From Yuukianura sp. NJ FZ-2021 (lineage: Eukaryota), in assembly GCA_046563655.1 (NCBI GenBank), contig CM102290.1:3410001-3474000 (forward strand): a stretch of DNA of 64,000 bases, written 5' to 3'. Position 1 is the first letter of the stretch, and every line of letters begins with the position of its first letter. Shown here piece by piece: positions 62,373-63,297 of this stretch. The position numbers and the translations under genes were made by a program. A model generated the notes under the pieces. The model was not told the DNA's origin, did not search any database, and was given only the letters and a program-made list of their open reading frames with translations.

Positions 62373-62517
62373 TTATTCAACAATTTCATCGAATCTCCAG
62401 ATGTAGTCCGTGTTATGCGGATAATCCTCAGCACCGTAGTTTGGGTAGATCTGAACGTAATGTTTTCCAGTTTCAAGAAATTGACTATTCCAAGTCAAAA
62501 TTCCCTTGGGGTAATAC
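62373..62517 (-). CDS. Nested antisense gene, last coding exon (third beta-trefoil-like repeat)
   Basis: Acceptor tttgcgttgctag (minus, ends 62518). Reads (K)YYPKGILTWNSQFLETGKHYVQIYPNYGAEDYPHNTDYIWRFDEIVE* and repeats the GILTW motif of the upstream exon. AATAAA at 62251-62246. Confidence 0.85.
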
Positions 62518-62611
62518 CTAGCAACGCAAAGTTTATAGTTACTTATTAAATTTTGAATTCATGTTAAATGTCAATACTGACCACATACGAAAGTCATTTA
62601 GGAATACTTAC

Positions 62612-63297
62612 TTCTTGCACGAGAGTTGGTAGCGGTCTTTTACTCCTTCTTCCGGTTCAATTTTCCAAAGACATTCGTCACGGTCCTTTCCGCCCGGCAG
62701 GTAGTCAGCATTTTTGTCCTGGTCGAGGTGGATACCAACGTAGTTGTGTCTCACTGCTCTCACAACACCATGGTCATGCAACTTGTGCACCAACGTAACG
62801 TAACCAGGCTCTTCAGACTGGATCATTTTCCATTGTGCGTCTTTATAGTAGCATCCACCATGGGAGTAGTTAGGTTCATGACCCCCACAAACAATTTGCA
62901 AGCATACAGCCGTTTCGTAGCTTGTGTCGTTAATGTAGGCTGTGTTGACAGTCCATGTCAAAATTCCGCCAGCCGCGAGGTTCACGTGGTACCAAGTATT
63001 CGTCTTGAGGTTGGTTCCTTCAATAGGAATTACAGCGCTGTTATCACCAGTGCCTGAGGGTGCTTTTGCTCCTGCCCCAAGATTAACGTTGGTAGTTGTA
63101 CAGCCACTACCACCGGATCCAAGGGTTACGTGGATTGTACCACCGGACGTGGTTGTAGCCGGACCTTTTACAACAATGATTTTTGGTTGGCCAGTGGTCA
63201 TATGTCCTTCCGTAAGTGTGTGAATTTCGCGAGTCTCCGTTGGGACCGTATGAGTGGTGATGGTCGTCTTAGTAGTGGTGGTTTCGCAATGAGACAT
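62612..63297 (-). CDS. Nested antisense gene, first coding exon: Thr/Gly-rich N-terminus plus beta-trefoil (ricin-B-like) repeats
   Basis: Longest ORF in the window. First ATG at 63297 (caagATG). The ORF's apparent stop lies inside a GTAAGT donor (62611-62606). A 94-bp phase-2 intron gives a 276-aa protein. Confidence 0.85.

Follow-up and report, generated by a model that had tools for sequence, protein, structure and literature searches.

An apparently unannotated gene antisense within TMTC3 of Yuukianura sp. predicted to encode a leaderless member of a rare beta-trefoil family

A survey of mytilectins (PMC10744619) describes beta-trefoil proteins that for the most part have no leader and are distributed very patchily; they occur in a proto-type, consisting of the trefoil alone, and in chimera forms with a C-terminal aerolysin-like domain. 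According to the same text, signal peptides are present in some lineages, some of the genes carry an intron in the third subdomain, and the proteins are almost absent from arthropods, with krill as the only case. The CWRC salivary proteins are described as a trefoil family that is confined to an arthropod lineage and shows binding on glycan arrays (PMC8244437). The IL-1anc proteins reported from crustaceans and other invertebrates are leaderless and combine an N-terminal region with a C-terminal trefoil; their hallmarks are an N-terminal PDZ domain, an (F/L)ES motif, a trefoil encoded on three to five exons and two conserved central introns (PMC13736523). Here we describe a gene that invites comparison with all of these. 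It is located at positions 62373 to 63297 on the minus strand of a 64,000-nucleotide stretch from Yuukianura sp. NJ FZ-2021 (assembly GCA_046563655.1, contig CM102290.1, positions 3,410,001 to 3,474,000 of the forward strand), which as a whole is called the window from here on. Judged from its sequence, this is a real and apparently unannotated protein-coding gene lying antisense within TMTC3. Its product appears to be a leaderless one-trefoil protein of a small, unnamed eukaryotic family and is, with a confidence somewhat better than even, most likely a glycan-binding R-type-like lectin, the ligand class, location and role being inferred by comparison.

The minus-strand open reading frame (ORF) that extends from stop to stop over 63336-62608 comprises 242 codons; 77 ORFs in the window reach 90 amino acids or more, and none is longer than this one, the runner-up having 198 amino acids. 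Its ATG is found at 63297, and the start sites of the relatives introduced below are equivalent to it in the alignment. As proposed in the preliminary description, excision of positions 62518-62611 joins two exons in frame and yields a protein of 276 amino acids followed by a TAA stop. Coding exon 1 (62612-63297, minus strand) starts with the ATG at 63297-63295 and covers residues 1-228 together with the first two bases of codon 229; coding exon 2 (62373-62517, minus strand) supplies the last base of this codon, residues 230-276 and the TAA stop at 62375-62373. The intron between them (62518-62611, minus strand) is 94 nucleotides (nt) long, begins with GTAAGT and ends with CTAG, is in phase 2 and sits where the third trefoil lobe begins. 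Its GC content is 29%, compared with 47% in the coding sequence (CDS). The TAA stop of the exon-1 ORF is located directly past ...TGCAAGAA and the GTAAGT that follows it, and the acceptor, ...GCGTTGCTAG followed by G, lies 94 nt further downstream. A candidate core promoter TATAAA (63382-63387, minus strand) lies 85-90 nt 5′ of the ATG and a candidate polyadenylation signal AATAAA (62246-62251, minus strand) 124 nt past the stop, both assigned by motif match alone; a further AATAAA overlaps the gene's own stop codon.

A HMMER search with the exon-1 product against 1,835,955,588 representative proteins returned six relatives at E ≤ 1e-3, with E-values from 2.8e-19 to 8.7e-5. All six are unnamed metagenome proteins and none has a Pfam family for the trefoil domain; most are encoded on transcript-like contigs of 901-1846 nt and two on longer genomic contigs. 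The top match among about 15 billion proteins was 45% identical. Over the trefoil, the identity to the window protein amounts to 74/183 residues (40%) in P0003, 61/184 in P0005, 60/181 in P0004, 52/169 in the product of the locus L002 after splicing by script, 46/174 in P0008 and 41/176 in P0013. A word-indexed protein search with exon 1 produced 699 candidates, none at E ≤ 0.01, and the same type of search with the family alignment returned solely P0003, P0008 and P0013 among 5356 candidates. The members have in common the motif I-P-G-T ahead of the first lobe, G-x-(L/V)-T-W within the lobes, and (D)Y-x-P-G-G...D-x-x-W-(K/R) preceding the last strand of each lobe. By these comparisons they form a new, very rare and unnamed sequence family of the well-known beta-trefoil fold, and the earlier statement that the protein defies assignment to any known animal gene holds, since no Pfam family and only six unnamed relatives emerged from 1.84 billion representatives. 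In a scan of metagenome loci, 171 pattern matches led to three loci, L001, L002 and L003. The last of these, a GC-rich bacterial contig on which the match runs antisense to an ORF of 646 amino acids, was rejected as a false positive.

The relatives also bear on the splice. The 47-residue product of exon 2 aligns to the C-termini of P0003, P0005, P0004 and P0008, all from transcript-like contigs, and these four proteins are uninterrupted where the window gene has its intron; at the junction, ...YQLSCKK/YYPKGILTW of the window corresponds to ...YILYNKKFPASGIVTY in P0003. The two relatives on genomic contigs, P0006 and P0007, derive from prokaryote-style gene calls and terminate precisely at the point of the window intron. 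On the contig of P0006, here the locus L002, the absent last lobe was recovered by tblastn about 80 nt downstream in a different frame, and the intervening intron is identical to the window intron in position and phase, with an apparent GC-AG boundary as read by eye. Because the relatives run across the junction and the L002 intron matches in position and phase, we accept the splice and consider the two-exon model secure with high confidence; the preliminary description, which had arrived at the same model, stands in this respect with its in-frame GT-AG join. The contig of P0007 carries at L001:268-900 (plus strand) a degenerate copy of a family gene, with a frameshift near the first lobe. In this copy the I-x-G-T motif is out of frame with the remainder, the last-lobe Trp is changed to Ser, an in-frame stop occurs at the conserved intron site and the GT donor is absent; either a pseudogene or a misassembly is the probable explanation.

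Within the 276-residue protein, a Thr/Gly/Ser-rich N-terminal region (63034-63297, minus strand, residues 1-88) precedes three trefoil lobes. Thr, Gly and Ser together make up 49% of this head, with 24 Thr residues, in agreement with the Thr/Gly-rich N-terminus noticed before. It is predicted to be disordered, its residues 1-86 having a predicted local distance difference test score (pLDDT) below 50 in the model of the exon-1 product; it is without a hydrophobic leader and has short motifs in common with the leaderless relatives P0003 and P0005. Neither a signal peptide nor a transmembrane (TM) segment was found in the whole protein, as judged from hydropathy without a dedicated predictor: the top Kyte-Doolittle mean over 19 residues is 0.79 and the mean of the first 30 residues is -0.74. 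The absence of a signal peptide, likewise claimed earlier, is thus confirmed at the level of hydropathy.

Lobe alpha (62818-63003, minus strand, residues ~99-160) contains WYHVNL...GILTW...YYKDAQWKM, lobe beta (62653-62811, minus strand, residues ~163-215) GYVTLVHK...DYLPGGKDRDECLWKIE, and lobe gamma (62385-62643, minus strand, residues ~219-273), which is split by the intron, RYQLSCKK/YYPKGILTW...DYIWRF. All motifs quoted in the preliminary description were located, namely WYHVNL, GILTW in two places, AQWKM, GYVTLVHK, CLWKI, RYQLSCK and YIWRF. Lobe beta misses the Trp after the Gly, has a shorter loop than its counterparts in the relatives and is the most divergent in the family. The claim of three repeats stood at one level and not at the other. 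When lobes of the family profile were compared with each other, the likeness was significant (hhalign P 1.7e-7, 4.4e-7 and 4.8e-11). Within the window sequence alone, in contrast, local alignments of lobe to lobe gave non-significant z values of 0.65, 1.5 and 0.37, the observed score being reached by 492, 188 and 670 of 2000 shuffles, respectively.

For the fold, P0003, which is 40% identical to the window trefoil, served as a stand-in and was modelled with a family alignment of 14 rows. The model had a mean pLDDT of 74.5, with means of 74-93 for blocks of ten residues from residue 81 to the C-terminus, and its strands form three similar groups. Foldseek returned 271 matches to this model in the PDB at E ≤ 1e-3, and the top matches listed consist of known beta-trefoil proteins throughout; the first was a Culex CWRC salivary protein (E 3.5e-7, 19% identity). 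In VIA-align, 859 of 922 chains scored Z ≥ 8. The highest values, Z 18.5-18.7, belonged to Bombyx 30K lipoproteins and the ENF-peptide-binding protein (Bmlp3: Z 18.7, root mean square deviation (rmsd) 2.3 Å over 149 residues), followed by HA33 (Z 17.3), CBM42 (17.1), Tpp80Aa1 (17.0), a mosquitocidal holotoxin (16.9), the CWRC salivary protein (16.5) and Mitsuba-1 (16.2). The model of the window's own exon-1 product, which misses most of the last lobe, was poor (mean pLDDT 53.7) and had no Foldseek match at E ≤ 1e-3, its weak matches to known beta-trefoil proteins ranging from 2.9e-3 to 2.5e-2. Its features in the protein language model ESM resembled solely trefoil families, weakly at 0.80-0.81 (RicinB_lectin_2, fascin, FRG1 and CDtoxinA). 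A two-chain prediction for residues 88-228 together with the exon-2 product, run with alignments unused and without controls, gave scores of 0.11 and 0.01, with the mark at 0.34. On the modelling evidence, the beta-trefoil fold, which the preliminary description had predicted, is settled for the family and reaches the window protein via the alignment.

The family comes in four layouts. The window protein, P0003 and P0005 are leaderless with a Thr-rich head, whereas P0008 and P0013 consist of a signal peptide and the trefoil; P0006 likewise starts with a signal peptide. In P0004, a signal peptide, a match to Propep_M14 (2.3e-8) and the trefoil are followed by a tail of about 115 residues (residues 372-487). 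The ESM features of this tail are like those of ETX_MTX2/aerolysin clusters (0.88-0.92), which we treat as a lead only; P0004 looks truncated, and it had no PDB sequence match at E ≤ 10 and no Pfam match in the tail. The fourth layout is found at L002:1001-3717 (plus strand), where a signal peptide, the trefoil, a Ser/Gly linker, a clear hydrophobic TM helix and a juxtamembrane exon precede kinase exons. These match PF07714 (8.4e-13 and 9.5e-20) on the same strand, with EGFR, VEGFR and Kit as the best PDB matches. Judged from the exon order, the common strand and the readable splice sites, the L002 exons would belong to a single mRNA in which the trefoil would serve a receptor tyrosine kinase as its ectodomain. 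Within the titles and abstract openings returned by a literature search, a receptor tyrosine kinase with a beta-trefoil ectodomain was not described.

Among described proteins, the R-type lectins are connected to the family by sequence. The family profile matched five PDB sequences at E ≤ 10, all of them beta-trefoil lectins: the haemagglutinin component HA33/HA1 (PDB 9qce, 3win and 4ouj) at 0.012-0.015, the mussel lectin SeviL (PDB 6lf1) at 0.022 and a ricin-B-domain protein at 0.065. HA33/HA1 and SeviL have the same fold with Z 16-17.3, and SeviL is a small stand-alone trefoil, as is the trefoil of the window protein. In R-type lectins the lobes end with a Trp and a hydrophobic strand, as in the window protein, and a 'VLTW' strand is common to the family and HA33. 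The differences are as marked. The E-values are marginal, the Pfam ricin cut-off is not attained and there is no Q-x-W motif; moreover, the family has longer lobes with a conserved Y-x-P-G-G loop, an extra I-P-G-T strand and, in the window protein, the head of ~88 Thr/Gly-rich residues ahead of the trefoil. With the mytilectins the likeness is one of way of life and not of sequence: leaderless and secreted forms, a possible aerolysin-like fusion and a third-lobe intron recur in the window family. No mytilectin was among the five PDB sequences matched by the family profile at E ≤ 10. The P-x-G-G sugar loop of mytilectins is placed elsewhere in the lobe, and Mitsuba-1, a designed trefoil based on MytiLec, is an ordinary structural neighbour. 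By analogy, the protein would be most like small stand-alone R-type lectins such as SeviL, and the range of forms in its family would be most like that of mytilectins, while it is a member of neither group by the tests applied.

The best structural matches, Bmlp3, Bmlp7 and the ENF-peptide-binding protein (Z 18.5-18.7, rmsd 2.3-2.4 Å over 149-152 residues), are arthropod proteins, and as in the window layout an N-terminal part of about 85 residues stands ahead of a C-terminal trefoil. The identity is, however, only 10-17%, their lead over other trefoils is only about 1.3 Z, and neither the window protein nor any relative matched Lipoprotein_11 at E ≤ 10. The N-terminal part of these proteins is a folded helical domain and the proteins are secreted; the head of the window protein, in contrast, is of low complexity, predicted with low confidence and leaderless. 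The Culex CWRC proteins (CqDVP-2/-4, PDB 7kcg and 7kc8), the top Foldseek match, differ from the window protein in being secreted, about 140 amino acids long and Cys/Trp-rich, and they were not matched in the search of the profile against PDB sequences. Compared with IL-1anc, the window protein has no PDZ domain according to Pfam and no [FL]ES motif, its trefoil is encoded on two exons with the intron in the last lobe, and its family shows a strong three-fold sequence symmetry at the profile level. The window protein is not one of the Bin/Toxin_10-type (Tpp) toxins, whose receptor domains the preliminary description had named for comparison, because the pore-forming half is missing: it ends just past the trefoil and has no Pfam match, and Z 17.0 for Tpp80Aa1 is unexceptional.

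Taken together, the protein would consist of a disordered Thr/Gly-rich head of ~88 residues and a single beta-trefoil domain, without a leader. We regard the trefoil as a putative ligand-binding module with up to three pseudo-equivalent sites because the same domain recurs in a receptor ectodomain and in secreted proteins, and possibly heads a pore former. A glycan ligand is favoured by the sequence links to lectin trefoils and by the retention of the same motif in three lobes, so that the domain may work as a glycan-binding, R-type-like lectin. An acidic residue is positioned three residues ahead of the lobe Trp in each lobe (D153, E208 and D266). In the marginal alignment with SeviL (E 0.022-0.086), the family motif Y-x-D-x-x-W comes to lie over M-Y-D-D-Q-I-W of SeviL, whose sugar contacts are Tyr37, Asp38 and Asp39 according to the structural report (PMC7744527); Tyr37 and Asp39 align with the aromatic-x-Asp just ahead of the Trp. 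This suggests that D153 of the alpha lobe falls on the main sugar-contacting Asp of SeviL and Y151/D153 on contacts, with an assumed offset between the numbering of the chain and that of the paper. As the protein is leaderless, it would act intracellularly or after unconventional release or cell damage, and a role in recognition or defence can be envisaged.

Several points weigh against this interpretation. The window exon products match no Pfam family at E ≤ 10, and P0003 reaches two trefoil families only below threshold (Beta-tre_PLH30 at E 0.034; RicinB_lectin_2 at E 0.053 with 14.6 bits versus a cut-off of 25.6 bits), while the other relatives match neither RicinB_lectin_2 nor Ricin_B_lectin; a lectin family is therefore attained neither by the window protein nor by P0003. 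In a PDB sequence search, exon 1 alone found nothing beyond two matches at chance level (E 1.1 and 1.9). None of the three lobes contains the classical Q-x-W motif: a regular expression found no Q.W in the window protein, the lobe ends being AQW-K, CLW-K and YIW-R. The lobes of the single window sequence lack significant mutual likeness, its beta lobe is without the T-W motif and part of a loop, and its own exon-1 model is poor with weak trefoil matches. The alignment with SeviL is marginal and its residue-number offset assumed, and the aerolysin-like character of the P0004 tail comes solely from language-model features. Moreover, trefoils that are no lectins, or for which lectin activity is not known (30K lipoproteins, IP3 receptor, MIR domains), figure among the top structural neighbours. 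With such trefoils among neighbours whose Z values lie within ~2.5 of each other, the fold leaves the ligand unfixed.

This brings up a trefoil that is real but whose ligand is a protein or another non-glycan, be it an IL-1/FGF-like signal or alarmin or a Kunitz/STI- or 30K-like inhibitor or storage protein, an explanation we consider rather unlikely. Leaderless with an N-terminal region of ~88 residues and a C-terminal trefoil, the protein has the layout of an IL-1 precursor; IL-1 and FGF chains are among the weak matches of the exon-1 model, yet they are absent from the Foldseek matches listed for the confident P0003 model, and so are the IL-1anc hallmarks (PDZ domain, (F/L)ES motif and exon structure) from the gene. 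The 30K lipoproteins and the ENF-peptide-binding protein are the neighbours with the best Z values, but Lipoprotein_11 remained unmatched. The receptor-kinase relative could have a protein as the ligand of its ectodomain and lectin Pfam families are not attained; on the other side, the sole sequence-level links are to lectin trefoils and one motif is kept in three lobes, as is more usual for multivalent lectins than for cytokines. We judge it improbable that the trefoil represents the targeting half, encoded on its own, of a pore-forming or binary toxin system, a defence toxin like chimera-type mytilectins, LSL or Bin/Toxin_10, whose aerolysin-like part was lost or whose partner is encoded separately. 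P0004 joins the same trefoil to its tail with ETX_MTX2/aerolysin-like features, and the structural neighbours include Tpp80Aa1 as well as the mosquitocidal holotoxin; however, toxin trefoils are structurally no nearer than other trefoils, the P0004 call is a lead without a Pfam or PDB sequence match, and the window protein stops seven residues past the last trefoil strand motif, with the pore-forming part absent. No partner gene is visible in the window, where the only other ORFs of at least 90 amino acids between 61600 and its end, on the plus strand at 62602-63057, 62939-63223 and 63058-63429, all overlap exon 1.

The glycan-binding interpretation also has to be set against a silent relic or a chance ORF, for instance a recently inserted or duplicated cassette that is unexpressed and functionless, to which we give slightly less credence than to the toxin half. 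The imperfect direct repeats on both sides of the gene unit resemble what an insertion or duplication would leave, the relative at L001 is visibly degenerate and the beta lobe of the window protein is the most divergent in its family; nevertheless, 276 codons are open over a correctly phased intron in what is the longest ORF in 64 kb, core residues of the family are kept at 23-40% identity to distant relatives, and TATA-like and poly(A) signals are present. Least probable of all, and in our view very improbable, is a recent horizontal transfer of a ricin-B-like lectin or toxin domain from bacteria or fungi, although an annotated animal relative was not found, the six relatives being unnamed metagenome proteins, the weak sequence links reach the bacterial HA33 besides a mussel lectin, and the gene is compact, lies within another gene and has repeats on either side. 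The exhaustive HMMER search brought up these six proteins and nothing else. Among 185,579 prokaryotic genomes queried with P0003, in a search that sees close relatives only, 0 of 16 candidates were confirmed, and on viral contigs 0 of 9 candidate stretches; the sole GC-rich bacterial locus, L003, was the false positive mentioned above. Furthermore, the spliceosomal intron is common to the window gene and L002 in position and phase, L002 also has tyrosine-kinase exons, and the GC content of the CDS (47%) is on par with that of the TMTC3 exons (46%). Because the intron is shared, a relative has a tyrosine-kinase fusion and the GC contents match, the family appears to be eukaryotic and of animal type. 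Recent horizontal transfer is not supported, and the suggestion of horizontal acquisition made in the preliminary description is not upheld, with no bacterial, fungal or viral relative in the searches.

A far more speculative scenario, to which we attach little confidence, would join these elements into one sensor module with four uses: it would provide a receptor tyrosine kinase with its ectodomain, direct an aerolysin-like pore former to its target, and occur as a secreted and as a leaderless soluble protein. The window gene would then be the first genomic anchor of an undescribed animal-type family, and the leaderless arthropod form, with its Thr/Gly-rich pro-region, could be a glycan-recognising immune effector or alarmin that is released unconventionally or upon damage, a counterpart of mytilectins or IL-1, which may have come into the TMTC3 intron as a cassette with repeats on both sides. 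Irrespective of this scenario, the gene adds a protein that is seemingly in no public protein set and illustrates how nested antisense genes escape annotation, and the conserved motifs of the family can be used as search patterns. Its four architectures, leaderless, secreted, possible pore-former fusion and receptor-kinase ectodomain, offer a compact case of the redeployment of a binding module. If sugar binding is true, an arthropod would possess a trefoil lectin without a leader, a kind of protein that is otherwise almost missing from this group according to the mytilectin survey (PMC10744619). In its present form the gene is evidence neither for horizontal transfer nor for a toxin. What stands out most is the rarity of the family, together with the reuse of its domain in a receptor kinase and possibly in a pore former; the kinase and the pore former lie outside the window.

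TMTC3 is represented in the window by its exons 1-3 on the plus strand (53535-53720, 60993-61133 and 61477-61602), mapped by tblastn with four Tmtc3 proteins and encoding residues 1 to ~150 of a Tmtc3 protein of ~900 amino acids. In a protein search, 60 of 63 candidates were at E ≤ 1e-3. The matches listed show 59-74% identity with exon 1, and the named ones are mostly arthropod 'protein O-mannosyl-transferase Tmtc3'; they come from Diptera, Orthoptera, Hemiptera, a spider and Daphnia, and also from a priapulid, a hemichordate and a hagfish. With no match exceeding 74%, the source genome is arthropod-like but has no near neighbour among the named species listed. The antisense gene begins 771 nt beyond exon 3, and tblastn with the four Tmtc3 proteins detected none of the ~750 further residues up to base 64000. 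Since the rest of Tmtc3 must lie past the end of the window, the antisense gene would be nested in TMTC3 intron 3, with the next exon outside the window. Of the nesting described earlier, the upstream TMTC3 exons on the plus strand were thus found, while the exon on the far side would lie beyond the window. Intron 1 of TMTC3 (53721-60992) spans ~7.3 kb, and intron 2 is ~340 nt long compared with more than 2.4 kb for intron 3.

The gene is bracketed by imperfect direct repeats. The left copy (61958-62084) consists of two patches ~19 nt apart and the right copy (63430-63735) of two patches ~200 nt apart; 61958-62002 and 63430-63474 are 80% identical over 45 nt, and 62021-62084 and 63674-63735 are 80% identical over 64 nt (E 3.6e-10). 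These repeats are collinear and enclose the whole gene unit including the TATA-like and poly(A) motifs. Additional copies of them are absent from the window, and a global alignment of the two flanks of the gene revealed no similarity besides the two patches. They may have been left behind by an insertion or have arisen through local duplication; a second copy (paralogue) of the antisense gene was not found in the window. An Rfam scan of the whole window returned no family reaching its gathering score, and the first 1-53 kb appear to be without another convincing coding ORF, as judged only by scanning the ORF list. Positions 1-7696 are occupied by a 180-bp satellite array of 42.8 copies with 99% identity that extends off the start of the window, and about three further degenerate copies reach 8285. 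At 26313-26701 there is a GC-rich minisatellite with units of 18, 29 and 47 nt built on GCACTGCGCAAGC, which yields spurious ORFs of 120-170 amino acids in all six frames.

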